From assembly GCA_029742005.1 (NCBI GenBank), contig GCA_029742005.1_4113.1: a DNA stretch of 64,000 nucleotides. One strand, written 5' to 3'. Under the pieces are notes generated by a model. That model had not been told where the DNA came from. It did no database searches and saw nothing but the letters and a program-made list of their open reading frames with translations. A program made the translations under genes and the position numbers. Position 1 is the first letter of the stretch; each line of letters opens with the position of its first letter. The DNA is from a phage. Below, in pieces: positions 5,339-64,000 of this stretch.

Positions 5339-5342
5339 ATCT

Positions 5343-5413: not shown

Positions 5414-5466
5414 CAAATATATTCTTAGAAATAACATTTTTCTTGAAAATAAATACTCCATACTAT

Positions 5467-42728: not shown

Positions 42729-43132
42729 CAAATACAGTACTGGCAACTCCACCGTCTGTAATATATTGTCCAGTACTGTAAATTTGTATACCATCGGTTA
42801 AGTAAGTTCTGTATAAAGTTGCTGTAACATATACGTTATTCATATTCATCTCTATTGGTAGTACACATTTGGTATAGGCCGACACATCTGTTTGTGTACC
42901 TATACCCAATTGACCTGCGTTATCGCCTGTGTTATTACCAGTTGCGTAAACACCCAATGAAGTTATAATATGATTAGAAAAATATGAATAACCCAAACTC
43001 TTGAGATTCTCTACTGTACAACGTACCATCTGACATAAGGGCAAAAACTGTTGTATCAGATGAAGCTATTTTTGTTACAGAAGGTTGTATGTTCTGTTTT
43101 GATGATGTGATAATTCTTCGAAAGGGTAGCAT
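42709..43132 (-). pseudogene. truncated and frameshifted RCC1-like paralog
   Basis: N-terminus MLPFRRI in one frame (42974..43198) continues in another frame (42709..43044) carrying GNNTGDNAGQLGIGTQTD. Confidence 0.5.
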
Positions 43133-43203
43133 TGTATCCTCCAAATGTAAATCGTTATTATATTTAGGACAAAAAATGCCAGTACAAGGCACTGGCATAA
43201 AAT

Positions 43204-44373: not shown

Positions 44374-44444
44374 AATTCCTCCTTTATTCATTATACTATA
44401 TTTAATACAAAAAGAAAAGCCAGTACAGAGTACTGGCCTATATT

Positions 44445-45164: not shown

Positions 45165-45218
45165 TATAATATATTTAATACAAAAAAGAAAAGCCAGTAC
45201 TCTGTACTGGCTTTTACA

Positions 45219-46409: not shown

Positions 46410-46478
46410 ATTTCCTCCTTATTCATTATACTATATTTAATACAAATAAGAATGCCAGTATCAAGTACTGGCATTATG

Positions 46479-47588: not shown

Positions 47589-47598
47589 AATTCTCTCC

Positions 47599-48729: not shown

Positions 48730-48804
48730 AACTAAAATCTCCATATAATAATTATAATGTATTTACAAAAAAATACCAGTACATATTTCAGTACTGGCAT
48801 TTTG

Positions 48805-49932: not shown

Positions 49933-50007
49933 AACTAAAATCTCCATATAATAATTATAATGTATTTACAAAAAAATACCAGCACATATTTCAGTACTGG
50001 TATAATG

Positions 50008-51180
50008 TTATGGTAAAATAATAGCTTGTAACGAACTCATACCCAATGTTGGAACACTCGCCTGTGGTGCTGGTGCATTCACTTTTGGTGATGAAACCGC
50101 ATAAGTCATTCCTGTACCCAAATCTGGATCAAAAACTACAGAACAATAATCCCCATTGTATATAAGTCCATTAGTATATCCTTGTACACTTTGAATGCAT
50201 TTCGTGAACGTACCAATGTCAGTAGTGGCATTTATTAAGTTCCTCCCACGGTAGCCACATGTGTATATGAAATTATCATCACCTATGTACATACTCGCAT
50301 TCCCAGAAGAACTACATAGATAAGACATATAAGCACGCATGTTTTTAGGAGCAACTGACAATGTACCAGCATAGAATTTATTATTCATACCCGAAATATC
50401 ACCATCACCCAAAGCACCAAAACTCCCCCAACCAGTACCATAATATCTCTTATCACTCAAGAATATAATACAGTTGTTATTACACATCTTGACTTGATAT
50501 ATCAATGAAGGATCAACCCCAGGGAATGATTCAGTGTATGTTAGAACAGCCAGATCAGTACTGGCATTACATTGATGATATGTATTAGTACCAGCGGACA
50601 ATATTGTACCATCAACTAATAGAATCCTCGAAGTGCCAGTACCAGCAATACAAGCAACAGCATTACCTGTATATATTTTTCTGAAAGTAAAGAAACCAAC
50701 AGTCTTACTCCCCTGTCCACTCCAACCAGTATTATCAACACCACATGCCCATACTGAACCATCTTGCATGATCATCATTACACCATAGCGTTCTATCGAA
50801 ATATAGACAATCTTCGTAGTATCAACTGCACTAAATCTAGAAGTTATATCAGTCCAAACCTTTACACTCACCGCCGTCGCACCGAAAGTAGGATCTTCCC
50901 CTGCTATCATTATCCTACCATTGTTAGTCAGATACATTGTCTGACTATAACCAGTACTACAAAACTTAACACTATCAGTCTCTGGAACTTTTAACCACTC
51001 GTTGTAACGTGTTACGTTAGTGTTATTATCTAACTGATAATAGTTATTCATCCCAGATACATATAACACACCATCCTTTATTAAACTATAAGTCGCACTA
51101 TAGTCACTACAGGTATAACGTGTACCCACAGGTCGCTCAACGACGTTCCCATATTCTAACATCCTTACAAAAGGCAACAT
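50008..51180 (-). CDS. RCC1-like beta-propeller repeat protein, array member 6
   Basis: Start at MLPFVRMLEYGN. Confidence 0.7.
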   Translation of the reverse strand: MLPFVRMLEYGNVVERPVGTRYTCSDYSATYSLIKDGVLYVSGMNNYYQLDNNTNVTRYNEWLKVPETDSVKFCSTGYSQTMYLTNNGRIMIAGEDPTFGATAVSVKVWTDITSRFSAVDTTKIVYISIERYGVMMIMQDGSVWACGVDNTGWSGQGSKTVGFFTFRKIYTGNAVACIAGTGTSRILLVDGTILSAGTNTYHQCNASTDLAVLTYTESFPGVDPSLIYQVKMCNNNCIIFLSDKRYYGTGWGSFGALGDGDISGMNNKFYAGTLSVAPKNMRAYMSYLCSSSGNASMYIGDDNFIYTCGYRGRNLINATTDIGTFTKCIQSVQGYTNGLIYNGDYCSVVFDPDLGTGMTYAVSSPKVNAPAPQASVPTLGMSSLQAIILP

Positions 51181-51221
51181 AACTAAATACCAGAACATAT
51201 TTCAGTACTGGTATCGTAGCG

Positions 51222-52364
51222 TTAAAATGGCATCTTAACCTCTTTATATACTAATATATCACCGGATAAACCAGGAAACGCAGAACCATTACCACATGCA
51301 TATATAGTACTGTCATTCCACGCCGCTTGATGGTAATTACCTATAGTACATTTATAATTCGATAAATCAGTCACACCAGGTGTTAGTACATAATATACTG
51401 GTCCACTAGGTAAATTAAAATCAAATCTACCAAAGTAGTTCAAACCAGATGAATAGGACTTGTCATTAGCAAATATTACAGTACCATCTTCTGTAAAAGA
51501 ACTGTGAGAAATGTCTTTGAGATTGTTCACAACACCAGACGGTATTGATGTATTCAACGTAAAGGACGTCAATGGTGCTGCACTCGGTGTGTTGTTCGCC
51601 GTGTAACCATAATATGCATAACCAGCTACATATACACTCGAATCTGAACAAAATAAAAATGCACTCCTATAACCCAACCTAATACTCTCTATAGTCTTAC
51701 TAAAAGTAACTTTAGTAAAGGTAGGAACTAAACCACTATATCCTACCCCACATGTACCAAAATCATTCTTCCCAGTACTGTACAATTCGTTATTATTTGT
51801 AAGGTAAAATGACGCAGCAGCACCGCTATCTAAAGTACTGTAAACGTCTTTTACATTACTCGCAATCAATTTAAATGCACTCAATACGGTAGCCGAACCA
51901 TTGTTAGACAGCGTTGTTGAATCCGTGCCTTGTCCTATTGTATATAAATCTCCAGTACTAGTCAAAACAAATATACCATTAGTCGCCATAACAATTCTGT
52001 CATTCTTTAAATTAAATGAACTAAAAAGTGTACTTATATCAGTAAAGGTAGTATAACGCCCACTCTGCCCTATACTCGATAAATTCCCACTCAAATAAAC
52101 CTTATTATCATTACCAACAGCTACATAACAACCCCACCCAGCATATATCTGATCAATGCCTTGTATCGGTATTTGTAACCATTCACTACCAGTTACCGAA
52201 GCAGTACTTCCAGTTCCAAGTTCACCAGAGTTATTAGCTCCGAATACATATAAATTCCCACTATCCGATAAAACAACTGTATTACCAACTCCAGTTTTTA
52301 TATCCTTGATACCATTCTTAGGAGCAACATTCCCATAATCAAACATTCTAACAAAAGGTAACAT
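51222..52364 (-). CDS. RCC1-like beta-propeller repeat protein, array member 7
   Basis: N-terminus MLPFVRMFDYGN; C-terminus YKEVKMPF. Confidence 0.7.
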   Translation of the reverse strand: MLPFVRMFDYGNVAPKNGIKDIKTGVGNTVVLSDSGNLYVFGANNSGELGTGSTASVTGSEWLQIPIQGIDQIYAGWGCYVAVGNDNKVYLSGNLSSIGQSGRYTTFTDISTLFSSFNLKNDRIVMATNGIFVLTSTGDLYTIGQGTDSTTLSNNGSATVLSAFKLIASNVKDVYSTLDSGAAASFYLTNNNELYSTGKNDFGTCGVGYSGLVPTFTKVTFSKTIESIRLGYRSAFLFCSDSSVYVAGYAYYGYTANNTPSAAPLTSFTLNTSIPSGVVNNLKDISHSSFTEDGTVIFANDKSYSSGLNYFGRFDFNLPSGPVYYVLTPGVTDLSNYKCTIGNYHQAAWNDSTIYACGNGSAFPGLSGDILVYKEVKMPF

Positions 52365-52436
52365 ATTTCCCTCCTTTATTCATTATACTATATTTAATCA
52401 AAAATAAAAGCCAGTACTTGAGTACTGGCATAGTAT

Positions 52437-53564
52437 TCAAAAAGGTAAATCAATTTGCTTAGTAATAATAGTATCTAACGGTATTGAACACAATGAGAAA
52501 TTCTTTCCACCCGTATTTTCAGGATTATATCCATTCATCCATACATTATTACCTTCGTAAAATGTATTCCAGTATAAAGCCCCACTATATCGTGTATTCG
52601 AATTGAACGATGGAAAGTTGAATTCTTGGAATGATGTAAAATATGGAATGGAACTTGAACTACTTCCCGTAAATGGGGTATACCCAGTTGCTATTAGTTT
52701 GTTTGTATCTGCATTAATTAAAAATACAACACTAGTCGAATAGTCCAACGAATCAGGATGATATATATTACTCATATCACCTATAGTAAAACCAACATCA
52801 AAAACTTTACTATGTGCACCACTACCAGCAAAAGTAGTTCCAGTTGCATATATTTTATTATCAGATGTTATCATTACAAAACCAACACCAGAAACAAAAC
52901 TGCATTTTATATCATAAGATATATCATCAAACAACGGAACAAATGTGGTTGCATCACCCGATGTTGCTTTAACTTGAAAGCTGTTATTTGAACCTGAACC
53001 ATATACAGTTCCATCGTTTTTAATCTTAAACAATGTATCGCCAAGGTAACCGCCAAATATATTATCCACATTAGTGTCAAGTACAGTCCACGCTGAAACA
53101 TAATTTTTATGTCCTAAACCTAATGCACCACTTCGATTCCATCCTCTTCCATAAAGTGTTCCGTCTTTCATTAATATAAATGCTGTATAACCACATAACA
53201 TTTTTTTAATTTGGGTAACATCTATACCAGTGAAATACACAGCCCAGTCAGTATATCCTTGTTGGAAAGTATCAGAATTCGTGAATGCATATGTTGGACC
53301 TGAACCATATATTTTATCACCTTTAATAACAACGGAAAACAATCCTAACCATAAGTCATCAACTTCAGTTGTGATTTGTTGAACTGCTCCTAACGATACA
53401 AACTTTGTACTTAAACCCGCATTATAGTTTGAATCTTCACCGTGTGCATATACAGTGCCATCTTGCATTAGAAACATTTCAAGAGTGCCACTAACAACAC
53501 TTTTCTTTATATTATTAACTTCGATTATATTCCCATAATCAAACATTCTAACAAAAGGTAACAT
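52437..53564 (-). CDS. RCC1-like beta-propeller repeat protein, array member 8 (close paralog of member 5)
   Basis: N-terminus MLPFVRMFDYGN; C-terminus ITKQIDLPF. Confidence 0.7.
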   Translation of the reverse strand: MLPFVRMFDYGNIIEVNNIKKSVVSGTLEMFLMQDGTVYAHGEDSNYNAGLSTKFVSLGAVQQITTEVDDLWLGLFSVVIKGDKIYGSGPTYAFTNSDTFQQGYTDWAVYFTGIDVTQIKKMLCGYTAFILMKDGTLYGRGWNRSGALGLGHKNYVSAWTVLDTNVDNIFGGYLGDTLFKIKNDGTVYGSGSNNSFQVKATSGDATTFVPLFDDISYDIKCSFVSGVGFVMITSDNKIYATGTTFAGSGAHSKVFDVGFTIGDMSNIYHPDSLDYSTSVVFLINADTNKLIATGYTPFTGSSSSSIPYFTSFQEFNFPSFNSNTRYSGALYWNTFYEGNNVWMNGYNPENTGGKNFSLCSIPLDTIITKQIDLPF

Positions 53565-53636
53565 AATTCCCTCCTTTATTCATTATACTTTATTTAATAC
53601 AAATAAGAATTCCTGTATCGAGTACTGGCATTCAAT

Positions 53637-54785
53637 TTATTGTAAAAAGGACATATCTACTTCTGTATAACTAAGAATGTTTTGACCAGCAATTCCACCC
53701 ATTACTACTATTGCATACCCACAATAATATAATTTCCCAGTGTCCGTAAGTATAAGTGAACCAGAAGGTGTTCTTACCAAATTACACGAACTATTAAAAG
53801 AAGTATACGAAGGAGTATAGGAGTACTGATTAATATTATTACCAACACCTAATTGACCACCCCTATTCGAACCAGATGCATAAAGTACTTCATCTGCTTT
53901 GACAATATGTGATGCCATGTTAGCAACACATGCATATACACCATATACCCCTGTACTCAATAATGTAGGAGTCTTGTATTGAATATCAGTACTAGTAGAT
54001 GTTCCACCTGTGCCAAATTCATTACCATATTGTGCTCCGTACTGCTTCCCACATGCGTACAAATTATTATCCGATTTGATAAAAAATGTACTCTGATAAC
54101 TTACATCAAAATCTATAACATCCGAAGAAATCATCGTTACCCCAGTAATCGAAGTTTGATTACCAGTACCCAACTGGTAGTAATAGTTAAAACCACAACC
54201 CCATAAAGTATTATCTTCTTTTAGGTATATGTTACCAACTGCCTTTTTAACCGAAGTTATAGTATCTACCCTTTTGAATGTGTTAAAAGAATTAATGTTT
54301 GTACCATCACCAAATGATGATAGGTTCGAGTTATTGTTAACTCCACAACAATACAACGTACCATCGTTTGTTATCAAATTCACCTTCATATCATTAAAAC
54401 TACTCATGTATTTTATATCAGAAACATTAATACCACCTGATGTTATCCATGTAGTACAGTCCGTCCATAACGTCTTCCTATCAGTTACCCCAGTAAATGC
54501 CTTCGTGTTACCAGTGATAAACACTTTACCAGTACCCTTTTCTTCATACAATTGACAATCACTACTGTTATCTTCCAATAAAACCCTCTGTACATTCTCT
54601 GCACAAAGAATAAATTTACTCGATGCTACACCTGTTCCAGTACCCCAATTCGTCGCAGAAGATGCATACAACTTATGTGTTAGTGTATCATGCAAATACA
54701 TAGAACCACTAGAATATATTTTAAAACGCCCAGAGTTGGTAGGTGCTTCATTCCCATAATCAAACATTCTAACAAAAGGTAACAT
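53637..54785 (-). CDS. RCC1-like beta-propeller repeat protein, array member 9
   Basis: Start at MLPFVRMFDYGN; C-terminus YTEVDMSF. Confidence 0.7.
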   Translation of the reverse strand: MLPFVRMFDYGNEAPTNSGRFKIYSSGSMYLHDTLTHKLYASSATNWGTGTGVASSKFILCAENVQRVLLEDNSSDCQLYEEKGTGKVFITGNTKAFTGVTDRKTLWTDCTTWITSGGINVSDIKYMSSFNDMKVNLITNDGTLYCCGVNNNSNLSSFGDGTNINSFNTFKRVDTITSVKKAVGNIYLKEDNTLWGCGFNYYYQLGTGNQTSITGVTMISSDVIDFDVSYQSTFFIKSDNNLYACGKQYGAQYGNEFGTGGTSTSTDIQYKTPTLLSTGVYGVYACVANMASHIVKADEVLYASGSNRGGQLGVGNNINQYSYTPSYTSFNSSCNLVRTPSGSLILTDTGKLYYCGYAIVVMGGIAGQNILSYTEVDMSFLQ

Positions 54786-54827
54786 ATTTCCTCCTTTATT
54801 CATTATATCATATTTACCCCATAACCC

Positions 54828-54856
54828 TTGACATCCTTTCAGTACTGGTGTACTAT
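54828..54856 (+). promoter_or_regulatory. sigma-70-like promoter at strand-switch, driving the plus-strand small-gene array
   Basis: TTGACATCCTTTCAGTACTGGTGTACTAT. Confidence 0.5.
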
Positions 54857-54881
54857 AGAAGGAATATAAGGAGAACTACAC

Positions 54882-55109
54882 ATGACAGCTACACTTAAGT
54901 ACTACATTAATACTCTAAATGAACTAGAGTACGGTAAGTTTCTCGCGGATTGTTCGTGGCTAATAGAGCTAAAAACACATAACAGTACTGGATGTAACCT
55001 TATGCTGAACAATGCACTTGATACCCTTGTAGTGAGTATTTTACACAGCAACATCTGCGGGAATAGCAATAAACAATTATCAAAAATCTTAGTACTGGTA
55101 GCTATATGA
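54882..55109 (+). CDS. small hypothetical protein, first gene of small-paralog array
   Basis: ORF track; AAGGAGAA RBS. Confidence 0.5.
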   Translation: MTATLKYYINTLNELEYGKFLADCSWLIELKTHNSTGCNLMLNNALDTLVVSILHSNICGNSNKQLSKILVLVAI

Positions 55110-55318
55110 ACACTATGAACATTAAACAGTACTACATCGATGCACTACCAACAAAAGGTCTACGAGAAAGCCTACTGTATACACAAAATAATTTTATACA
55201 CTACAAACGTTATCCTAAACTCCTGAACTCGTACAGGAATAATAACATAAGAAATGCTTTACAAGGGGTAGAAAGTATGCAATACTATTACATCCTTACC
55301 CTTTTAATCGAGTACTAA
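55106..55318 (+). CDS. small paralog-array protein (YY-N-term, LLIEY C-term)
   Basis: ORF track; coupled start. Confidence 0.5.
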   Translation: MNTMNIKQYYIDALPTKGLRESLLYTQNNFIHYKRYPKLLNSYRNNNIRNALQGVESMQYYYILTLLIEY

Positions 55319-55319
55319 T

Positions 55320-55505
55320 ATGTATAAAGAATTCTACTGTAGTAAGCTGCACAAGCAATACCGAGATTCATTCCCCAATGAACCTATGGACATGAATAGT
55401 CCATTTTATAAATTTGACTTCAGACTGGAGACACGTTATGCAATAGAACATCAATTTCCTGAAACTAAGTACTTATCTATCATGAACCTCATCTTTAAGT
55501 TCTAA
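55320..55505 (+). CDS. small paralog-array protein
   Basis: ORF track. Confidence 0.5.
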   Translation: MYKEFYCSKLHKQYRDSFPNEPMDMNSPFYKFDFRLETRYAIEHQFPETKYLSIMNLIFKF

Positions 55506-55516
55506 AAGAGTACTAT

Positions 55517-55729
55517 ATGAAAACTATGAACATTCATCAGTACTACTTAGATATTCTCCCTAAAGATGTGCAGAACATCCTTAAACAAGAATTCAGTACT
55601 TTAAAAAACCTTAAAAGATCCGCACCGAATGTACTCATCCTGCACCAAATAAATGTAGTTGATAATATTCTACAAGGTGTACCAGGAACCGAGTACTTTA
55701 ATATAGTAAGGCTAATTACATTACAATGA
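55517..55729 (+). CDS. small paralog-array protein
   Basis: ORF track; similar to 55106..55318. Confidence 0.5.
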   Translation: MKTMNIHQYYLDILPKDVQNILKQEFSTLKNLKRSAPNVLILHQINVVDNILQGVPGTEYFNIVRLITLQ

Positions 55730-55911
55730 ATCATATAAGCTACTATTACCAAAAACTATCCGACCGAGACAAGTACAGCCACAACTCCCATGTATGGTAC
55801 TACAAACGCGGTAGTATAAGGGACAAACAACATTACTTCTGTACTGCTATAAAAGAAAAACTAACAACTAAGTACACGTACAGAGCAGTACTGAAACTTA
55901 TTGATATGTAA
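55726..55911 (+). CDS. small paralog-array protein
   Basis: C-terminus KYTYRAVLKLIDM. Confidence 0.5.
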   Translation: MNHISYYYQKLSDRDKYSHNSHVWYYKRGSIRDKQHYFCTAIKEKLTTKYTYRAVLKLIDM

Positions 55912-55921
55912 AGAGAATACT

Positions 55922-56107
55922 ATGAATACATTTGAGTACTATACAAATAAACTATCTATGCCAGAAAGATCTCATCTCTATGTGTGGAGAAATGCGTATA
56001 AAAGCGGCAATAAACTTATACAAAGAAATTCCCTTACAGTGTGTACAAATTTAATTAAAGCAGAGTACCGCACATATATTGAAGTACTGAAACTAATCTC
56101 TATCTAA
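55922..56107 (+). CDS. small paralog-array protein
   Basis: Internal ATG (MNTFEYY); C-terminus YIEVLKLISI. Confidence 0.5.
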   Translation: MNTFEYYTNKLSMPERSHLYVWRNAYKSGNKLIQRNSLTVCTNLIKAEYRTYIEVLKLISI

Positions 56108-56115
56108 GGTACTCT

Positions 56116-56295
56116 ATGCAAGAATTCTATATCTATAAACTTCAGCACAAAGATAGATACAACTATAATAAATTCCAAAGGTACTACACAGTCGGGAACA
56201 AAAGAGATAAAAAACGATACTTTCTATCATGTACAGTAGAAGCACAAAACGAAAAGTACACGTACAGAGAAGTACTGAAACTCATCTCAATCTAA
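56116..56295 (+). CDS. small paralog-array protein (59 aa)
   Basis: Manually read ORF below track cutoff; C-terminus KYTYREVLKLISI. Confidence 0.45.
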   Translation: MQEFYIYKLQHKDRYNYNKFQRYYTVGNKRDKKRYFLSCTVEAQNEKYTYREVLKLISI

Positions 56296-56303
56296 GGAAT
56301 AAT

Positions 56304-56483
56304 ATGCAAGAATACTATATAGAACACATAAGCATTAAAGACCGTTTCATGTACGACACCTTCGTGAAGTACTACAACCTGGCAACTAACAGTACTAAAA
56401 ATATTAATCTCAATAGCTGCATTCATCAGGCACTAACAAAAGATAATCCCTTCAGGGAAATCCTCGCTCTCGCATCTGTATAA
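56304..56483 (+). CDS. small paralog-array protein
   Basis: Internal ATG (MQEYYIEH) after AAGGAA RBS. Confidence 0.5.
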   Translation: MQEYYIEHISIKDRFMYDTFVKYYNLATNSTKNINLNSCIHQALTKDNPFREILALASV

Positions 56484-56494
56484 AGGAATCTAAT

Positions 56495-57154
56495 ATGAAA
56501 CTTAATGCACACAGTAAACAATACCTTAAGCACTTTAAGTACCTCAACAGTATTCAAGCAGAATCTTTTACACCAACATATACTTACGACCCGTGTGTAC
56601 TAAAGAAACGAAATAAAAAGAAAAAATCCAGAAATGTTCTCGTATCTAAGAACCTCAAATCGTACTTGAAGAAAAATAATATAGCTCTTGCTTTTATTAA
56701 TATCTATAATACTGATTTAAAAGTATTGAGTACTAATACCAGCACAAAAGCACTAAAGAATGCATCTATCTATATACACATGGATAATATCCCGTGTACT
56801 ATAATTCTATCTTTCGGGAATGTATACTTCTTCGGGAATTGTAATAGCACCCATGATATCAGTACTGCACAATTCCAAATCGGCGATATGTACTGCATGG
56901 GTTCAGAAAAAATACACGATAACATGCACTTCTTCCAAAAGCAACGTACTAACGAAACTGATACAGTACTGCAATTCCTCAAAGAATTACAAGGCAAAGA
57001 ATTATCAGAAGAAGATCTATTCATGTACAGTACTGTAATCGATAATCCAGAACTCTATAAAAACGCGTACAATCTAACAAAACATGTACAGGAACTTATC
57101 AGTACTGATAAGAAATTTCATCACCTCATTACGTATATTTCAAACTATGTATAA
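56495..57154 (+). CDS. hypothetical protein (219 aa) embedded in small-paralog array
   Basis: ORF track; AAAGGAA RBS. Confidence 0.55.
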   Translation: MKLNAHSKQYLKHFKYLNSIQAESFTPTYTYDPCVLKKRNKKKKSRNVLVSKNLKSYLKKNNIALAFINIYNTDLKVLSTNTSTKALKNASIYIHMDNIPCTIILSFGNVYFFGNCNSTHDISTAQFQIGDMYCMGSEKIHDNMHFFQKQRTNETDTVLQFLKELQGKELSEEDLFMYSTVIDNPELYKNAYNLTKHVQELISTDKKFHHLITYISNYV

Positions 57155-57329
57155 AGAATACTACAAAGATAAAATCCCAATGCATCTACAACACCATATA
57201 CCAAACGTTGCATTGGGTATCAAAGATCACGCAAAGATAATGTTCCAACAATGTACTAAGTACACGCTCATATACGATGATAATCCATATATGCTGTACT
57301 ACGTAGTAATGCTAACATTCAGGTACTAA
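57147..57329 (+). CDS. small paralog-array protein
   Basis: Internal ATG (MYKEYYKDK) overlapping previous stop; C-terminus VVMLTFRY. Confidence 0.5.
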   Translation: MYKEYYKDKIPMHLQHHIPNVALGIKDHAKIMFQQCTKYTLIYDDNPYMLYYVVMLTFRY

Positions 57330-57330
57330 T

Positions 57331-57510
57331 ATGAATACTTATAAAGAATTCTACCTCTCGTACCTTAATTCCGATATAGTAACATCCAATACATTCAGTA
57401 CTAAAATTATCTATAATGAATTAATGAAAGAATGTATTAACGGTGCTATTAACCCTAAAGATACGTATGACTTGTACTATGCAGTACTAACCCTTGTTTT
57501 CACGAAATAA
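57331..57510 (+). CDS. small paralog-array protein (59 aa)
   Basis: Manually read ORF below track cutoff (MNTYKEFY...); TAATATG junction. Confidence 0.45.
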   Translation: MNTYKEFYLSYLNSDIVTSNTFSTKIIYNELMKECINGAINPKDTYDLYYAVLTLVFTK

Positions 57511-57518
57511 CACATAAT

Positions 57519-57710
57519 ATGAATAACCACAAAGAATACTACATAGAGAAACTCCCAATGTATCTCCAACACCTTGTACCAACAGAACCATTGGGTATAG
57601 AAAAAAACTACGAAAAAGACTACTTCATTCAGTGCACTAAATCCTCGATATATATTGAAGACTATAATCGAGTACTGTATCACATCCTTTTACTAATATA
57701 TAGGTACTAA
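57519..57710 (+). CDS. small paralog-array protein
   Basis: MNNHKEYYIEKLP ... LLLIYRY. Confidence 0.5.
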   Translation: MNNHKEYYIEKLPMYLQHLVPTEPLGIEKNYEKDYFIQCTKSSIYIEDYNRVLYHILLLIYRY

Positions 57711-57711
57711 T

Positions 57712-57894
57712 ATGCACAAAGAATACTACACACAATTTCTCCCCAGCATTTTTGAACACTACGCCAGATACAAAGTCCCTATGGATAACGATTTGGCAGT
57801 ACTGGGATTCAATAACTGCATAGAACGAAGTATAGAAAATAGTAGTAGTTATGACCAGCTATATAACACTATCCTACTTATATTCAGGTACTAA
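57712..57894 (+). CDS. small paralog-array protein
   Basis: MHKEYYTQFLP ... ILLIFRY. Confidence 0.5.
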   Translation: MHKEYYTQFLPSIFEHYARYKVPMDNDLAVLGFNNCIERSIENSSSYDQLYNTILLIFRY

Positions 57895-57895
57895 T

Positions 57896-58081
57896 ATGCA
57901 TAAAGAATACTACACACAATTTGTTAAAGGGAACTACAAACATGCCGTACCCAGAACCCCTTTAAATTCTCATGACCCAAGTACTATATTCTTGTTTAAT
58001 GACGCAATACGTACAGTACTCAATACTAAAGATGAAGATGTGCAGTACGTATTCTTACTATTACTTATATACAGACACTAA
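57896..58081 (+). CDS. small paralog-array protein
   Basis: Internal ATG (MHKEYYTQFVKG); C-terminus LLLLIYRH. Confidence 0.5.
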   Translation: MHKEYYTQFVKGNYKHAVPRTPLNSHDPSTIFLFNDAIRTVLNTKDEDVQYVFLLLLIYRH

Positions 58082-58086
58082 CTAAT

Positions 58087-58296
58087 ATGAATAAAGAACA
58101 TAAAGAATTCTACTCCAAATACATAAGCCCCTCAGAACAAATGTTTCTAAGGACTACTCCACCTTTAAGTACTAATACATTTTTCGGCAGAGTATGCTAC
58201 AATAATTGTATTCAAATGACTTTAAACGCAAACGAAGATGGTAACAGTACTAACCTGTACTCAGGTATCATAGGTATACTATTCCTGTATGAATAA
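58087..58296 (+). CDS. small paralog-array protein
   Basis: MNKEHKEFYSKY ... Confidence 0.5.
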   Translation: MNKEHKEFYSKYISPSEQMFLRTTPPLSTNTFFGRVCYNNCIQMTLNANEDGNSTNLYSGIIGILFLYE

Positions 58297-58477
58297 TTAC
58301 AAAGACTTCTATTTGAATACACTACCTACTGTACTTTCTCTAAGTGCTCAATGTAAAATCCCGCTGGATAATGCTTACGCCAGATATAGCTATTCCATAA
58401 CTGTTAATCGATGTATAGAGAATCATTGCAGTACTAACCAGTACTATAACATAATCCTACTTATATTCAGGTACTAA
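58289..58477 (+). CDS. small paralog-array protein
   Basis: MNNYKDFYLNTLP ... ILLIFRY. Confidence 0.5.
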   Translation: MNNYKDFYLNTLPTVLSLSAQCKIPLDNAYARYSYSITVNRCIENHCSTNQYYNIILLIFRY

Positions 58478-58478
58478 T

Positions 58479-58625
58479 ATGAATAAAGAACATAAAGAAT
58501 TCTATATACGAAAACTAACATTCGTCCCCGTAAGAATATATAAAGAATGCGACCCAAGATTATACCTATGGCACTTCAATGAGTGCATAAAAGATTCTAT
58601 ATACCATAAGAACTATAAAGAATAA
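58479..58625 (+). CDS. small paralog-array protein, short variant (48 aa)
   Basis: Manually read ORF (MNKEHKEFYIRKL...); may be a truncated copy. Confidence 0.35.
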   Translation: MNKEHKEFYIRKLTFVPVRIYKECDPRLYLWHFNECIKDSIYHKNYKE

Positions 58626-58676
58626 TTGTGCTCAGTACTAACACTAGTACTATCATATTAATTAATAGAGAATACT

Positions 58677-58868
58677 ATGTATAAAAACTTCTATATAAGT
58701 AAACTAAAAGAAAATGAACAAGTATGGATTAGATCTATAATTCCACTGGCATTTAATAGATATGCATTTAACAGATGTACCGAGATTGCTATAGACCCTT
58801 ATAATATTAAAGAGAATGTACAGTATAATCAGTACTACTATATCTTAATGCTTATATATAGAAAGTAA
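58677..58868 (+). CDS. small paralog-array protein, last member
   Basis: MYKNFYISKL ... ILMLIYRK. Confidence 0.5.
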   Translation: MYKNFYISKLKENEQVWIRSIIPLAFNRYAFNRCTEIAIDPYNIKENVQYNQYYYILMLIYRK

Positions 58869-59506
58869 TTAAACACAAGTAGACAGGGGAAGCTCCTAGT
58901 GAACAACCTTTATGTACAGGCGAATTGTTAAAATTCAGCCTGGACAAATGCGATCACTAGGATTCTCCCCAGGCTAAACCCCGTAATCATAGGTAGTCAT
59001 AAGTAATCATATATAAACATTTATATGAGCACCGTAGAATCACAGAATGATTATATATGATTCAGTACTGATTAGTATAGACAAGATTGCTCAAGAATGC
59101 ACGGAAATGTGTGTGAATGATTCAGTACTGATATCCCACTAAGTAGGCAGAGGAAGTCTGCCGTACTTTTTAGTTTCCAAGCTCCTTTTCCATTTTTCAA
59201 ATTACATCAAATGTAATCAAAAGTAATCACGCAATGATTAGTACTGAATTATTACTTTCACCTTAATTTCAATGACCCCTTTACCCTTCGGGGTAAAATT
59301 CCATTACCCCTTGAGGCTCCAGCAAAAAGTTGGTTAGTACTCCATCCTAAATCTCGATCCTAAAAATTTTGGAGTACCTATGAAATAAAAGTTGGATCTT
59401 CGAAAGTTGAAATTTACGTTGGGACGTTTATGATTTGTGGGATATAATGATGTTTGTAGTCGGGTAGTTCTCAAGAATATCAGTACTGAATAATGAAAGA
59501 AAGCTA

Positions 59507-59533
59507 TTGACATTATGATTCAGTACTGTATAA
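59507..59533 (+). promoter_or_regulatory. sigma-70-like promoter inside the ORF-free region
   Basis: TTGACATTATGATTCAGTACTGTATAAT; no ORF downstream. Confidence 0.5.
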
Positions 59534-59920
59534 TGTTCTACATAGCTTCAAGGGGTGATGAGTTGCTGCGAACAATTCATTTACTCTACCTCCTGTCGTG
59601 AGACAGTACAGAAAAGATAGTTCCTCCTGTGGTGGTACATCTTTTTGAACCTCATATGAAAATCGTAATAACAGTACTGATATTAACAGAATGGTGTCAG
59701 TACTGATTTTAATCTAAAGCATTATGCCACCAGCACAAGCTGGTGGATTCCCTCTAACAGTATTCAGTACTACATGATAGTCTTCATCCTCCTAGGGTAA
59801 CATAGTGAGGGCTATGATGGCAGTACTGAATACTCCCTTTCAAAAGATAGATCTATGGTATAGTACTGACGGATTTTGGGCGTAGTTACCCTGGATGGAT
59901 TTTGGACGTAGATATGTCTA

Positions 59921-60060
59921 GCCCTCCAGAAGTCTGGAAGTAAAGATGGCTATCCATCTAGACGGCTAAACGGCTAGATTTCTGGATGGCTGGATGGCTA
60001 GACGTTTGGACGGCTAAACGGCTAGATGGTTACACGTCTGGAAGTATAGACGGCTAAATC
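59921..60060. repeat. cluster of short direct repeats (iteron-like)
   Basis: GACGGCTAAACGGCTAGAT x2, GTCTGGAAGTA x2, multiple GGATGGCT copies. Confidence 0.6.
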
Positions 60061-60220
60061 AAAATTTTATTTTGTTTTTTCCAATAGTTCCCCTACCGCG
60101 TGGGGATAGTTTCCCCGCAGTATCTGGAGTTAGATTTTTCTGAATCTGGAATCATTATCTTATAAACTGGGGGCAATGTCAACCGCCTGGACGGATATTT
60201 TTAAAAATTTTTTCAGTACT

Positions 60221-60295
60221 GAATTTTGGGCGTAACTATGCACCCGGTGGGCTATAGTCTTTCTCGACTTGATGGAACTATTATACAGTACTGAA
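60221..60295. repeat. ~70-bp repeated element, copy 1
   Basis: GAATTTTGGGCGTAACTATGCACCCGGTGGG...; related copies at 60436 and 63774. Confidence 0.5.
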
Positions 60296-60435
60296 AAAAT
60301 AAAGCAATACCCTGGAAGCAAAAAAGTTTTAATTAATTTGCTTGCCATCCTGGGCCGTACTATGGTACTATATTTCAGTACTGAGAAAGTGCGTTTACCT
60401 GCTAGGGTGCGGGAGTGTATCCTTTTTTTATATCT

Positions 60436-60505
60436 TGAATTTTGGGCGTAATTCCGCACCCTCTGGGGTTTCCGCTTTCTCGCGTCTATGTAGTAATTAT
60501 ACGCT
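60436..60505. repeat. ~70-bp repeated element, copy 2
   Basis: GAATTTTGGGCGTAATTCCGCACCCTCTGGGG...TAGTAATTATACGC. Confidence 0.5.
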
Positions 60506-60816
60506 TTTTCAGGATCAAGTCAATACCTAAAAACAAAATAATTGAAAATAATTTAACGCGTTTAAACGGCCCGTAACGCCCTGGAATGATTGGAATGGTG
60601 CAAATGTATAGCTTAGGTGTATTAATGCGTTAGAATGCGTCTGAGGCCGTTTTACGGGGTATGGGGATGATTTAGTGGATTGATTCAGTACTGAATGATA
60701 GTACTACTATATAGAAAGATAGTTCCCCTGGATGGTTGCAGTACTGAATGATAGTACTGAATAATAGTTCCCCTATATAGAAAGAAAACTATTTTAAAAG
60801 TATTTGTAGAAAGTAC

Positions 60817-60876
60817 TTGCAAACTATGTTTAACGGCGTATAATGTTTTACATCGAGAGCGGGAACACTTCCCGCT
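60817..60876 (+). promoter_or_regulatory. class C cassette: sigma-70-like promoter plus GC-rich leader hairpin
   Basis: TTGCAA-N16-TATAAT then hairpin GCGGGAAC...TTCCCGC. Confidence 0.6.
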
Positions 60877-60899
60877 ACACTTTAAGAGAGATTAATACG

Positions 60900-61262
60900 A
60901 TGGCGACTCAAATCACTAAAATCATGCTTAACCTGGTAAACTTCCGCGATGAGATGAAAGGTCTTCCGGCTGAAACTGTAAAAATTCACATTGCAGCTTA
61001 TCGGGAACTTATTGCAATGTTGCCGCTTAAGCGTGAACAATACGCCGCTACTTTGATGCTTGATTCAATGATCCATATAATGATCTCAAATGATTTAACG
61101 ATGGTTTATCAGTATATGGGTGAATTGTTCGCGGTGTATAGTAAACCAGTACCAGGAATGGAAAGTACAGAAGTATTACACGGTTTAAATTTAAAACAAG
61201 ATGCATGGGATAATATGCCTCGTTTCCTGGTATGGGCTGACAGTGGCAAGATTTACGAATAA
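60900..61262 (+). CDS. hypothetical protein
   Basis: Internal ATG (MATQITKIM) downstream of leader hairpin. Confidence 0.55.
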   Translation: MATQITKIMLNLVNFRDEMKGLPAETVKIHIAAYRELIAMLPLKREQYAATLMLDSMIHIMISNDLTMVYQYMGELFAVYSKPVPGMESTEVLHGLNLKQDAWDNMPRFLVWADSGKIYE

Positions 61263-61276
61263 GTTTTAGAAAGTAC

Positions 61277-61335
61277 TTGCAAACTAAGTTTAAAAGCGTA
61301 TAATGTTTTACATCAGGTGGGGAATAGTTCCCCAC
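61277..61335 (+). promoter_or_regulatory. class C cassette: promoter plus leader hairpin
   Basis: TTGCAA-N16-TATAAT then GTGGGGAA-TAG-TTCCCCAC. Confidence 0.6.
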
Positions 61336-61355
61336 TATATAAGAGGATTAAAAAA

Positions 61356-61595
61356 ATGGCTAAATCAAAAATGTTCTTGGGTCACAAAAACAAAACTCAT
61401 TGGAATGTAAGCCTTTGGATTAATAACGATGAGTCATTGTACCGGTTGGCCCAGGACTTTATTGCCGCCAATACTAATCGCAATGATGCGGCCCGTCATA
61501 TGATGTTATTTTTAGAACAGACTGGACAATATAAAACACCGGACGGATTCAAATATAGCACTACTGCGATCCGTGCGGCGATGGTTGGAATGTAA
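61356..61595 (+). CDS. hypothetical protein
   Basis: ATG after AGAGGA RBS (MAKSKMFLG). Confidence 0.55.
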   Translation: MAKSKMFLGHKNKTHWNVSLWINNDESLYRLAQDFIAANTNRNDAARHMMLFLEQTGQYKTPDGFKYSTTAIRAAMVGM

Positions 61596-61680
61596 TAGAA
61601 TTTATTTAAAGTACTATCGCAAAAAATGATAGTACTTTATAATAGTGTTTTATTCATACACCAACGATAAGGGCAACAGC

Positions 61681-61947
61681 ATGAATATTAAGTATTTTGC
61701 GACGCGTGAACAAGCTCGGATCGCCGCACGCCAGGACGGGGCAACGTTTAAAGATATGGGCGTACAATCGGAACGTGGTAAACGTTGGGCCATTATAAAG
61801 CGTAGTACCGCCAGATCATTACAGTACTGGCTATCTGCTTTAAAGCGTCCTGATAGTGTATCGCGTCGCGTGGTAGAAATAAAGCACGACCGCAAGGGCA
61901 ACCGCGTTACTGTGTACAGTACTAAAAAGATAGCAGTACTTGAATAA
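61681..61947 (+). CDS. hypothetical basic protein
   Basis: ATG after AAGGGCAA (MNIKYFATREQ). Confidence 0.5.
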   Translation: MNIKYFATREQARIAARQDGATFKDMGVQSERGKRWAIIKRSTARSLQYWLSALKRPDSVSRRVVEIKHDRKGNRVTVYSTKKIAVLE

Positions 61948-61953
61948 AAGTAC

Positions 61954-62022
61954 TTGCATACTATGTTTAAAGGCGTATAATGTTTTACATCAGGACGGGG
62001 AACGAAATAAGTAACTTCCCGT
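61954..62022 (+). promoter_or_regulatory. class C cassette: promoter plus leader hairpin
   Basis: TTGCAT-N16-TATAAT then ACGGGGAAC...CTTCCCGT. Confidence 0.55.
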
Positions 62023-62071
62023 TAAGTAGCCCAGGAGTAAGGCACACGAAAAACTCCCCTGATAAAATAGT

Positions 62072-62099
62072 TTGACAAATGTTTTTAAAAGCGTATAAT
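62072..62099 (+). promoter_or_regulatory. sigma-70-like promoter
   Basis: TTGACA-N16-TATAAT upstream of ORF 62132. Confidence 0.55.
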
Positions 62100-62131
62100 A
62101 CTTACATCAACTACTGAATGAGGGTTACAAA

Positions 62132-62743
62132 ATGAAAACTATCACTACTACTACTTTCGTTATGGCTTTTTCTGAATTGAACGCAGAACAACAAACGTCA
62201 GCTATCGAACTGGTTCGGGATCGGGAACGTTCAAGCGGTGATGATTTCTTTTCTGAGTCAGTGATCGAGTACTATAAAGAAACAGTACTACCAGAATATG
62301 GAATTGATGACGCTGATTTGCAATTCAGTGGTTTTTGGTCGCAGGGTGACGGTGCATCAATCAGTACTGACCACGTTGACGCAGTGAAGTTTTTACGCAA
62401 GATTAAAGCATTAACTAAGTATCGTTCTATCCGTCACCTGCTGAATGAAGATGATTTGGCGATGAGTGTAAAGCGTTCTCACTCCCACTACTCGCATGAA
62501 AACACTGTAAGCGGGTACATTGAATCGGGGTACACTGATTTAACCGCAAAACAAGAAACGTTAGTTAATGAGCTTGAGGAACTACTCACTGAAACTATTC
62601 GTGAATTATCCCGCAAGTTGTACCGTGATTTAGAGAATGCATATGAGGATCAATTCACTACTGAAAACATTACGGCACTGATTGAGGGTAACGAATATCA
62701 ATTCAATGTTATTGATGGCGTAGTAGAATCTATCGAATATTAA
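62132..62743 (+). CDS. hypothetical acidic protein (203 aa)
   Basis: ORF track; GAGGG RBS. Confidence 0.6.
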   Translation: MKTITTTTFVMAFSELNAEQQTSAIELVRDRERSSGDDFFSESVIEYYKETVLPEYGIDDADLQFSGFWSQGDGASISTDHVDAVKFLRKIKALTKYRSIRHLLNEDDLAMSVKRSHSHYSHENTVSGYIESGYTDLTAKQETLVNELEELLTETIRELSRKLYRDLENAYEDQFTTENITALIEGNEYQFNVIDGVVESIEY

Positions 62744-62799
62744 TTCAGTACTGAATCAATGGCGGGAGTGGTTCCCGCCTATAACCAGGAGTAAGCATC

Positions 62800-63033
62800 A
62801 TGTTCGAACAAATTCAAACGACCACAAGCCGGAGCGGAACGAAAGTACATTACATCGCTGATACTGATAAAGGTGTACCCTATTGTGCTGTACACGTAAA
62901 TACTGACGGTGACTATTGGTTAACTGTATACGGGCGTTACTCGTTTGCTTTTAGTGCACATTGTAAGATCCTGGAAGTAGTGAAGCCTACCGGTAAGAAT
63001 ATCACGCCGGGAAAATGTTTTACTAAGCACTAA
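62800..63033 (+). CDS. hypothetical protein, paralog of partial ORF at 63955
   Basis: N-terminus MFEQIQTTTSRSG vs MLEQIKSTSSNVTG. Confidence 0.55.
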   Translation: MFEQIQTTTSRSGTKVHYIADTDKGVPYCAVHVNTDGDYWLTVYGRYSFAFSAHCKILEVVKPTGKNITPGKCFTKH

Positions 63034-63040
63034 AAAGTAC

Positions 63041-63101
63041 TTGCATACTAAGTTTAAAAGCGTATAATACTTTATATCGAGGCGGGGGAATGGTTCCCGC
63101 C
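63041..63101 (+). promoter_or_regulatory. class C cassette: promoter plus leader hairpin
   Basis: TTGCAT-N16-TATAAT then GGCGGGGGAA-TGG-TTCCCGCC. Confidence 0.6.
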
Positions 63102-63119
63102 TTTACTGAGGATTATCTA

Positions 63120-63407
63120 ATGAGCAAAGTAATTAACTATACAGTACTAAGCAAGTCATTATCTATTAGCCAGTGCACCGATGGTTTTTGGCTGTACGAT
63201 GAAACGCGTGGCATGAATTTAGCTATGCGGGAGAAAACTGCTGAGGCGGCGTATTTACAAGCCCTGGAATACTACCAGGAACGTTTAAAGGAAGTAGAAA
63301 ACAATTATCAAAATTTAAAAGAGAAAGTAGATAATTTCGTTGGTCAATTCGTTGACGATGACGAGGAAGACGGGCACTACTGCAACCGTTGCGGATCTTA
63401 CAATTAA
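63120..63407 (+). CDS. hypothetical protein with C-terminal CxxC
   Basis: ATG after GAGGA RBS (MSKVINYT). Confidence 0.55.
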   Translation: MSKVINYTVLSKSLSISQCTDGFWLYDETRGMNLAMREKTAEAAYLQALEYYQERLKEVENNYQNLKEKVDNFVGQFVDDDEEDGHYCNRCGSYN

Positions 63408-63411
63408 GTAC

Positions 63412-63471
63412 TTGCAATTAGTTTTCAGTACTGTATAATGGTTTACATCAAAGGGAGAAATGGTTCTCCCT
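63412..63471 (+). promoter_or_regulatory. class C cassette: promoter plus leader hairpin
   Basis: TTGCAA-N16-TATAAT (spacer has CAGTACTG) then AGGGAGAA-ATGG-TTCTCCCT. Confidence 0.6.
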
Positions 63472-63489
63472 GGTAATGAGGAAAATAAA

Positions 63490-63711
63490 ATGGCTAATAT
63501 CACTACTCTTTCCCAACTGGAAGCACTGGTTAAATCTATGCGGGAACATGCCGACAAAATCGGCGTACAAGATCCAGCCGTTTGCTTTTGCGACGAATTG
63601 AATGATGATACCCTGGTAATAGCAGAAGTCCAGGACGTTTCTAACTATTCCTCGCGTTACACTGGCGGCGTAGCAAATAAAGGTGACTTCTGTTTATACC
63701 TTACAAAATAA
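63490..63711 (+). CDS. hypothetical protein
   Basis: ATG after GAGGAA RBS (MANITTLSQ). Confidence 0.55.
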   Translation: MANITTLSQLEALVKSMREHADKIGVQDPAVCFCDELNDDTLVIAEVQDVSNYSSRYTGGVANKGDFCLYLTK

Positions 63712-63773
63712 CAACGCGGGGAGATAATAACTCCCCGTTACTTTTTCAGTACTGAATCATTTAATAGACGGAT

Positions 63774-63826
63774 CTATGCACCCGGTGGGTTAGTGACTGT
63801 TTCGTCTTGATGTAGTAATTATGCCA
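63774..63826. repeat. ~70-bp repeated element, copy 3
   Basis: TCTATGCACCCGGTGGGTTAGTGACTGTTTCGTCTTGATGTAGTAATTATGCC. Confidence 0.45.
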
Positions 63827-63879
63827 GTACTGGATGCACTTGTCAACAATTATTTTTCAAATACTTTTTATTAAAATAC

Positions 63880-63933
63880 TTGCAATTAGTTTTTAAACGC
63901 GTATAATGTTTTGCATAGGGGGAGCGGTTCCCC
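63880..63933 (+). promoter_or_regulatory. class C cassette: promoter plus leader hairpin
   Basis: TTGCAA-N16-TATAAT then GGGGGA-GCGG-TTCCCC. Confidence 0.6.
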
Positions 63934-63954
63934 TGGTAACTAAGGAATAATAAA

Positions 63955-64000
63955 ATGCTTGAACAAATCAAATCAACGTCTTCGAATGTAACGGGAACGG
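63955..64000 (+). CDS. hypothetical protein, 5' partial at window edge
   Basis: ATG after AAGGAA RBS; ORF runs off the window. Confidence 0.4.
   Translation, partial: MLEQIKSTSSNVTGT

Follow-up and report, generated by a model that had tools for sequence, protein, structure and literature searches.

A gene-free stretch of an Asteriusvirus genome probably marks the left chromosome end and its conserved untranslated leader

Long direct terminal repeats (DTRs) and the coordinates of their ends are already known for a few members of the clade of Rak2-like jumbo phages. The ends of fEgEco12 were set with PhageTerm and confirmed by restriction digests, and its repeat measures 20,993 bp (PMC13070987). 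PhageTerm likewise set the repeat of BF17, which is ~20.5 kb long (PMC10059673), whereas the end of Pectobacterium phage CBB was located by read depth and pulsed-field gel electrophoresis (PMC5259590). In the related jumbo phage PA5oct, the terminal repeat is transcribed early (PMC7318152). Here, we analyze a gene-free stretch (58869-60899) within a 64,000-nucleotide piece of phage DNA (contig GCA_029742005.1_4113.1), which we refer to as the window. Comparison with related genomes indicates that this stretch holds the left chromosome end of a DTR phage, followed by a conserved untranslated leader that extends to the first early gene. We place the probability of this reading, including the mechanism proposed below, at about 0.85.

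The window is 95-98% identical to the Asteriusvirus genomes PBECO4, 121Q, phAPEC6, G17 and the Salmonella-propagated SD-2_S15. Judged by this similarity, its source is an Asteriusvirus, a PBECO4/121Q-like, Rak2-like jumbo coliphage (myovirus) of ~350 kb. A sensitive BLAST search with the region returned pieces that match the first few hundred bases of many distant genome records, one of which lies inside a feature annotated as a PhageTerm-predicted terminal repeat. Four related genomes (BF17, ELP-22, CRJP21 and fEgEco12) were deposited independently with both repeat copies present, and in all four the first base of the record corresponds to window position 59142. The records of vB_Ec-M-J and E9.1 carry the repeat block of the leader at the same offset from base 1 as in the window. 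In BF17, positions 1-20590 of the record equal positions 362904-383493 in gene order and at the start of the sequence, and the unique sequence that leads into the right copy is the one seen in the window. Because the records start at 59142 and this unique sequence precedes the right copy of BF17, the step 59141/59142 is the junction between unique and repeated DNA. The repeat of BF17 terminates at ..GGGGCTAAAGGGCGGGTAACCT/TTAGCGACTTCG, beyond the end of the window, and the homologue of the right repeat boundary, ..GGGTAACCT/TTAGCG, is predicted to lie ~20.6 kb from 59142. Together, these alignments show that 59142 corresponds to the first base of the packaged linear chromosome and 59141/59142 to the left boundary of a ~20.6-kb DTR in concatemers.

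Further comparison revealed that the terminus itself is conserved far beyond the genus. The window end carries GAAGTC at nucleotides 12-17 (59153-59158), and RAAGTC occupies nucleotides 12-17 of the first bases in Klebsiella phage Muenster, CBB, Serratia phage BF, Erwinia phage pEa_SNUABM_47 and Xanthomonas phage XbC2. The position is thus common to Asteriusvirus, Alcyoneusvirus, Mimasvirus (CBB, XbC2) and Eneladusvirus. The end of Muenster was determined with PhageTerm. Since the genomes that bear RAAGTC share almost no other nucleotide similarity, independent end determinations have hit homologous positions. The right repeat boundaries of BF17, Muenster and CBB, which represent three genera, share CTAAAG..GTAAC.CT/TAGCG. 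In the window, a hairpin (59146-59162) followed by a T-run lies at the chromosome end. GTAATCA-type repeats stand on the unique side of the junction (58986-59019) and again just inside the end, so that the cut site is flanked by direct repeats; the unique-side tail also holds two TTCAGTACTGA sites (59062 and 59122).

The gene upstream of the stretch stops at 58868, and the downstream gene, the first early gene, which is annotated in BF17 and relatives, opens at an ATG at 60900 behind a ribosome-binding site. A preliminary description of this DNA, made from the letters of the window, had reported no credible open reading frame (ORF) in 59000-60800; this holds for the entire interval between 58869 and 60899. 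An ORF called mechanically from 60843 is a mere run-through of the first early gene's promoter, and the curated annotations of G17, phAPEC6, 121Q and A4 leave ~1.9-2.0 kb blank at the same position. We rejected the idea of missed small genes: with one exception, each internal ORF of 31-99 codons meets a stop or frameshift in some of the eight relatives compared. The sole intact frame (60442-60576; TTG start, 44 amino acids) falls within a stretch that is 94-97% identical and is therefore uninformative. Searched at gathering thresholds, Rfam matched only the tRNA cluster in the whole window and nothing near the region; at E <= 5, the region itself yielded nothing credible, the sole matches being eukaryotic families at chance level. 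ARAGORN found no tRNA in the region, the tRNA cluster lying elsewhere at 376-5414.

The leader comprises 1,758 nucleotides (59142-60899) from the end to the first start codon, ahead of the early-gene block that fills the DTR. Its counterparts measure ~1,785 nucleotides in Serratia BF, 1,799 in CBB, 1,725 in XbC2 and ~1,522 in Muenster. Among nine Asteriusvirus genomes, identity per 50-nucleotide bin is 0.92-0.97 across 59300-60650, as against 0.81-0.93 in the first early gene and 0.54-0.85 in the genes and spacer on the unique side. By this measure, the non-coding leader is under stronger constraint than the coding DNA that surrounds it.

The order of modules in the leader is common to five lineages (Asteriusvirus, Muenster, Serratia BF, CBB and XbC2). 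The terminal motif and hairpin come first, followed by a cluster of A-tract/TCTSGA repeats with AAATTTTGGAGTACC and then by a strong inward sigma-70 promoter 270-390 bp from the end (P1 in the window). Next comes a variable stretch with hairpins, one of which contains Chi in this genus. GAATTTTGGGYGTA and a tandem array follow, and then TTTTCCAWTAGYTCCCCTWCCGCG. One or two units that consist of a CACCC..GGG hairpin, TTTCTC and TATTATRCCAGTACTG accompany a conserved second promoter (P2 in the window, 60342-60371), and early-gene promoters of the form AAAGTACTTGMMA-N-TATAAT complete the series. The A-tract/TCTSGA cluster (59349-59411) is the leader block best conserved across genera; it has equivalents at +60 to +270 from the end in all five lineages and is a candidate recognition site for the terminase or for a bending protein.

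Could the blank instead be a remnant of decayed genes left by gene loss, or a mis-join of the assembly at a repeat? Assemblies are indeed prone to breaks at this place: a metagenome contig of 87 kb from a close relative (OERM01000014.1) passes through the junction and stops at window position 60066, where the array ends, probably because the assembly broke at the repeat. However, more than 35 independent genomes carry the stretch collinearly at 90-98% identity; it is better conserved than its flanking genes and retains its architecture across genera that have almost no nucleotide identity. Such conservation effectively refutes an origin as junk or artefact, which we regard as extremely improbable.

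Table 1. Features of the left chromosome end and leader in window coordinates.
Feature	Position	Strand	Basis or remark
Non-coding end of the unique DNA, bordering the DTR	58869-59141	.	conservation 0.54-0.85
Left end, first DTR bases AGTAGGCAGAGGAAGTCTGCCGTACTTTTT	59142-59170	+	record starts of relatives; PhageTerm literature
GTAATCA repeats just inside the end	59206-59229	+	partners of 58986-59019 outside
A-tract/TCTSGA repeat cluster AAATCTCGA, AAAAATTTTGGA, AAAAGTTGGA, AAAGTTGAA, including AAATTTTGGAGTACC	59349-59411	+	0.92-0.97 in genus
P1, sigma-70 promoter with CAGTACTG in spacer	59507-59534	+	365 bp from end; fires rightward into non-coding DNA
Hairpin/cruciform, 14 bp, from two adjacent CAGTACTG palindromes	59672-59705	.	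fold z = -5.6 for the segment; palindromes pair trivially
Inverted E. coli Chi pair CCACCAGC-ACAA-GCTGGTGG, hairpin	59727-59746	.	+586/+598 from end
Pre-array block, two copies of ATTTTGGRCGTAG	59862-59927	+	repeat family; GAATTTTGGGYGTA kept across genera
Tandem array, ~17 contiguous head-to-tail 8-bp units, consensus RGAYGGCT	59928-60063	+	repeat analysis
A/T-rich run, conserved TTTTCCAATAGTTCCCCTACCGCG, small G+C hairpin	60064-60125	+	all five lineages; fold z = -2.6
Repeat unit U1: CAGTACTGA, ATTTTGGGCGTAA, small hairpin CACCC..GGG, TTTCTC, TATTATACAGTACTGA	60214-60300	.	repeats; cross-genus conservation
P2, promoter-like TTGCCA-18-TACTAT with TG, then CAGTACTGAGAAAGTGC, hairpin and T7 run (60404-60430)	60342-60430	+	possible ~50-nt transcript
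Repeat unit U2, GAATTTTGGGCGTAATTCCGCACCCTCTGGGG..TTTCTCGCGTCTATGTAGTAATTATAC	60434-60523	.	overlaps strong minus-strand promoter-like TTGACT-16-TATAAT, 60523-60496
Genus-specific block	60540-60665	+	94-97% conserved; no significant fold
53-bp tandem duplication: paired AGTACT, TAGTTCCCCT..TATATAGAAAGA	60685-60790	+	most variable leader part, dips to 0.59
First early gene promoter/5' leader	60812-60899	+	AGTACTTGCAA-N16-TATAAT 60817-60844, hairpin 60859-60875, ribosome-binding site, ATG 60900

Repeat unit U2 also matches Yersinia phage fHe-Yen9-04, Serratia BF, Muenster, RaK2 and K64-1. The element CCACAGGGTGCGG and its complement TCCGCACCC, which make up leader units E1/E2, recur four to five times through the repeats of CBB (1-22456) and Muenster (1-20030) and thus represent a dispersed early-region repeat that is not confined to the leader.

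The consensus promoter that the preliminary description had placed at 59507-59533 is P1, a perfect 12/12 match to TTGACA-16-TATAAT. Equivalents of P1 lie at +270-330 in Muenster, Serratia BF, CBB and XbC2; the same four phages conserve the P2 promoter and a GAGAAA..AGGGTGC element, but not the T-run downstream of P2. The minus strand of U1 also resembles a promoter (TTGCTT-16-TATAAT), and the promoter cassette of the first early gene is repeated at 61272-61336. P1 belongs to a class with the form TTGACA-N8-ttCAGTACTG-(a)TATAAT-Gtt, in which a palindrome abuts the -10 element; members occur at 1733, 2212, 2984, 20510, 36204, 59521 and 63426, and also at 49992 and 54840. Promoters of this class stand directly upstream of tRNA genes (1733, 2212 and 2984) and of early genes. 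In a second class, AGTAC lies just before the -35 element (AAAGTACTTGCAA; 60812 and 61272), and this class is also found in the Serratia, Yersinia, Pectobacterium and Xanthomonas relatives. With its conserved sigma-70 promoters, the leader is likely to be transcribed.

What such transcription might produce is a separate matter. The leader could be a cluster of small non-coding RNA genes or give rise to a long untranslated leader RNA, with P1, P2 and minus-strand sites (60523, 60312 and 60182) driving short structured early RNAs. The perfection of P1, the P1-class promoters ahead of tRNA genes elsewhere in the window, the positions of P1 and P2 that are conserved across genera, the hairpin and T7 run downstream of P2, and the abundant non-coding RNAs produced from the terminal repeat of PA5oct (PMC7318152) would all fit this explanation. 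However, the region has no Rfam match even at E <= 5, the T-run of the P2 terminator is not conserved in other genera, and no part of the leader is less conserved across genera than the sequence 3' of P1. Folding of ten segments gave unremarkable z-scores except where CAGTACTG palindromes pair trivially with one another, which reveals nothing about RNA function. No RNA family, conserved terminator or convincing covariation emerged from the leader in the few lineages available. We consider an RNA-coding function rather unlikely.

The CAGTACTG palindrome proved to be a feature of the genome at large. The preliminary description had counted at least ten sites in 59000-60800, and this interval indeed contains 11 CAGTACTGA, together with 12 CAGTACTG and 18 AGTACT; their value as a marker of the region is weakened by the occurrence of the motif throughout the genome. 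The whole window has 63 CAGTACTG against 0.9 expected and 236 AGTACT against 21 expected (~11-fold), densest in 54000-64000. The local density of 7-10 per kb is just two- to threefold above the window average. The extended consensus is TTCAGTACTGAA, the motif context is a palindrome of 10-12 bp, and copies stud the structured repeat units of the leader. Most AGTACT sites (170/236) are inside genes. Counted per frame in plus-strand genes, they number 56/43/36, compared with 8.5/2.9/5.7 after codon shuffling; since the motif is enriched in all three frames, its excess is a genome-wide signal at the level of DNA. In BF17, Muenster and CBB, the terminal repeats carry 6.4-7.8 AGTACT per kb and the DNA outside them 2.3-3.4 per kb. 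We found no prior description of AGTACT in jumbo phages or of promoter motifs in the genus. A match between TTCAGTACTGAA and the E. coli SlmA site (GTGAGTACTCAC) was set aside, as the flanking bases differ.

These palindromes suggest a further explanation for the leader, namely control of early transcription. According to this model, a dimeric DNA-binding protein of the phage or host would use the dense TTCAGTACTGAA palindromes as operators to turn early promoters off or on, and the leader would act as its sink or nucleation site. Consistent with operators are the palindromic context, the two- to threefold higher density in terminal repeats than outside, and the presence of CAGTACTG within the spacer, directly against the -10 element, in eight or more strong sigma-70 promoters of the window, P1 among them. 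On the other hand, most sites lie in genes and in all three frames, which argues for a genome-wide role beyond promoter control, and the binding protein is only hypothetical. Moreover, operators account neither for the terminal motif and the 8-bp array nor for the fact that the region coincides with the mapped end. We therefore entertain this model only tentatively.

The array lies within the block of direct repeats that had been noted at 59921-60060. Two of its described words stand, with exact copies of GACGGCTAAACGGCTAGAT at 59961 and 60009 and of GTCTGGAAGTA at 59932 and 60036; GGATGGCT, described as recurring several times, occurs exactly only twice (59984 and 59992). The units of this block, described there as iteron-like, are contiguous 8-mers instead of spaced iterons. 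Conservation of the block in related phages, on which the preliminary description had made its reading depend, is borne out: the array is 99-100% identical in most Asteriusvirus genomes. It is also present in Eneladusvirus and Mimasvirus, near ends or terminal repeats.

Outside the jumbo phages, the array has a BLAST match in the T7-like phages PGT2 and phiKT (E = 3e-12, 83% over 75 nucleotides) at nucleotides 40-114 of a 260-bp terminal repeat. In PGT2, an Escherichia podovirus, the 260-bp DTR starts with TCCAACACAAATGAGGTCGCG and the array occupies nucleotides 40-120; GAGGTCGC is found at nucleotides 13-20, one base off the position of the jumbo-phage motif. Many T5-like phages of Vibrio, Aeromonas and Providencia also match the array, with E down to 4e-10, and in the T5-like phage Pontus it lies between DnaA boxes and GGTGCAAATYCGA repeats. 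T5 itself carries Fur-box-like repeats (AAATGAGAATCATTATC) that are flanked, as the array is in Pontus, by DnaA boxes on one side and GTGCAAATCCGAC repeats on the other. This Fur-box-like stretch is in untranslated Repeat Region 3, which Davison linked to the injection stop signal (bioRxiv 10.1101/866236). The same exchange is seen among the jumbo phages. Muenster has Fur-box-like repeats (GAGAATGATAATGATTCTC and similar) at the position of the window's array, located at 780-910, 1073-1100 and 1306-1325 of its leader. Six of these are within five mismatches of the Fur consensus, compared with 0.17 in shuffles, whereas the window's leader has none. Similar repeats in T5 are its "direct repeat C" and palindromes. 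In each of two unrelated phage groups, one kind of array thus takes the place of the other at corresponding positions, an alternation that points to a protein-binding platform with a swappable partner. No array-like DNA that could mark a host locus with the same binding factor turned up in 5,426 E. coli genomes.

A replication origin had also been among the candidates for the stretch. In such a scheme, the array would supply iterons, the A/T run at 60064-60085 would be the unwinding element, and P1 or divergent promoter-like sites would prime synthesis as at T4 and T7 origins; this function could coexist with a role as chromosome end. The 22-nucleotide A/T run does follow directly after the tandem array, strong promoters occur on both strands, the non-coding sequence is highly conserved, and cumulative GC skew passes through a local minimum near 58-59 kb. 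We dropped skew as an origin marker, however, because its sign change comes mostly from the block of minus-strand genes at 42.7-54.8 kb. Neither strand of 58800-60900 contains a DnaA box (TTWTNCACA), the units are contiguous 8-mers and not 17-22-bp iterons in helical phase, and no initiator gene is adjacent, the neighbors being small early genes of unassigned function. In addition, a T7-like phage has the same type of array within its 260-bp terminal repeat, and quite different repeats take the array's place in Muenster. An origin is not supported by these observations, and we judge it quite improbable.

With regard to neighboring DNA, the minus-strand block (42709-54803) comprises ~11 tandem genes of 1.1-1.2 kb, probably paralogues, whereas almost all other genes of the window are on the plus strand. 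Three of the tandem genes hold the Chi complement ~255 nucleotides apart (44503, 44761 and 45016). The small plus-strand genes at 54900-58868 have a GC skew of -0.28 at third codon positions, compared with +0.06/+0.01 in other plus-strand genes. At 3901-3992, beside tRNA-Met and other phage tRNAs, ARAGORN predicts a tRNA-Ser with the unusual anticodon ACT (Rfam tRNA, 49.9 bits).

RecBCD recognizes Chi in one orientation only, and the CCACCAGC arm of the Chi pair in the leader is the one recognized by an enzyme that enters at the left end. This arm starts at 59727 on the top strand, 586 bp from the left end, and GCTGGTGG follows at 59739; the leader thus presents Chi in the orientation that would be met from the nearby end. 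The Chi hairpin is kept in seven of nine Asteriusvirus genomes, with its loop either way round: the loop (59735-59738) reads ACAA in the window, SHEFM2K and BF17, and its reverse complement TTGT in 121Q, JNE01, G17 and phAPEC6. The two loop versions suggest that the palindrome flips. Chi sites also populate the ~20-kb repeats as a whole. Top-strand GCTGGTGG occurs eight times in BF17 and seven times each in Muenster and CBB, compared with two, one and two copies on the bottom strand, and the 168 octamers of the same composition average 0.1-0.3 in these repeats. Chi is the most frequent G+C-rich octamer in each of the three, and Muenster has none in the next 25 kb. The 10-kb repeat of T5 contains two Chi sites on the top strand and none on the bottom.

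It is tempting to speculate that the leader is a portable chromosome-end module of unrelated DTR phages, in which the array binds a common host or terminase-associated factor that governs end cutting, ejection or pausing, combined with a one-orientation Chi field over the 20-kb repeat of the jumbo phages. This idea arises because the array is near terminal repeats in Rak2-like jumbo myoviruses, T5-like siphoviruses and phiKT-like podoviruses, because a similar G-A-R-G-T-C motif lies ~12 nucleotides from the end, and because the array is interchangeable with Fur-box-like repeats. If it is correct, the Chi field would lead host RecBCD to protect the incoming end and recombine the repeat copies into a replicating circle or concatemer. 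Such portability is possible but doubtful at present.

For the chromosome end itself, we propose the following mechanism. The packaging nuclease would recognize the terminal motif and the nearby repeat cluster and cut at a fixed position, and the repeat would be duplicated or regenerated during packaging, as proposed for DTR phages of the T7/T5 type. After ejection, the leader may provide a non-coding buffer at the DNA end, and its host-type (P1-class) promoters would start early transcription toward the early genes; early activity is suggested by the position of this class ahead of tRNA and early genes and by the early transcription of the PA5oct repeat. Chi in the leader, together with the many Chi sites of the repeat, could turn RecBCD from degradation to RecA loading, which would favor recombination between the two repeat copies to form circles or concatemers. 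The array may serve as a binding platform, for which the small terminase subunit and a DNA-entry or end-handling factor are candidate partners.

Several points weigh against an assignment as chromosome end with these functions. Homology to relatives, and not reads of this phage, supplied the position of the end, and the window stops 4.9 kb into the repeat, so that the duplication is not visible inside it. A scan of metagenomes for contigs that end at the terminus found two that read straight through the junction and one that ends at the array; read-through is expected for concatemers or collapsed repeats and adds nothing. T5-like phages carry the array near the inner repeat boundary and not at the outer end, so its position relative to the end is not uniform. 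Leaders of other genera lack the Chi hairpin, as do A4 and EJP2. A4 still forms a hairpin, through one compensatory and one wobble change, but has lost Chi; structure rather than Chi may thus be selected. The dominant orientation of Chi in the repeat protects the right end and not the left.

Among the three candidates originally put forward for the stretch, a packaging site fits best, given the fixed left end and the conserved non-coding signals next to it, whereas roles as an origin or in small RNA production are not shown. The largest non-coding gap of this gene-dense genome would then be the chromosome end, and records of the group should open at the base that corresponds to 59142. In the literature, we found neither the AGTACT excess nor the Chi field described, and likewise no account of the untranslated leader, the cross-genus terminal motif or the array shared with T5- and T7-like phages. 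Pattern scans of IMG/VR returned only already-known genomes and one unrelated G+C-rich contig, a chance match. Jumbo coliphages of this clade are under development for therapy and engineering, and conserved elements with exact coordinates offer targets for the mapping of packaging signals and for transducing or engineered genomes. If confirmed, Chi-rich repeats and an array shared with T5- and T7-like phages would suggest how long-DTR phages handle naked ends in cells that contain RecBCD.

The locus can be compared with four kinds of known system. Iteron-type origins of plasmids and phages have tandem direct repeats beside an A/T-rich stretch, as does the window; they differ in that the window's units are contiguous 8-mers with neither DnaA boxes nor an adjacent initiator gene. 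The short phased repeats and A-tracts beside the fixed cut at cosB of lambda and pac of SPP1 and P22 suggest a plausible reading of the cluster at 59349-59411 and of the array; spacing and sequence are unrelated, and this is a resemblance only. T7 and its relatives, like the window, have fixed DTR ends, arrays of short repeats at or in the repeat, and strong inward host-type promoters within a few hundred bp, features of the T7 left end that Dunn and Studier reportedly set out in 1983. The T7-like phage PGT2 even has an array of the same 8-bp unit 40-120 nucleotides from its left end and GAGGTCGC at nucleotides 13-20. However, T7-type repeats are 160-260 bp in length, in contrast to the ~20.6-kb gene-filled repeat and 1.76-kb leader of the window phage, which we take to be a T4-related jumbo myovirus with a terminase lineage different from that of T7.

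T5 offers a parallel as well, with differences in layout. Its main repeat region is at the inner (right) repeat boundary, downstream of genes, whereas that of the window is at the outer-left boundary, upstream of genes; on the map, the leader marks the outer boundary of the left repeat copy but, for the right copy, the inner one. Paired DnaA boxes and GTGCAAATCCGAC repeats occur in T5 and are missing from the window (58800-60900), and the two-step DNA transfer of T5 is not known for the window's clade. On the other hand, Repeat Regions 1-3 of T5 are, like the leader, long (1.2-1.8 kb), free of ORFs, dense in repeats and located inside a long DTR that holds the earliest genes. The T5-like Vibrio and Aeromonas phages have the same type of 8-bp array as the window, and the Fur-box-like repeats of T5 recur in Muenster. 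Both the T5 repeat regions and the leader are better conserved than neighboring genes (bioRxiv 10.1101/866236). The window thus shares with T5 a large ORF-free, repeat-rich and conserved region inside the terminal repeat.

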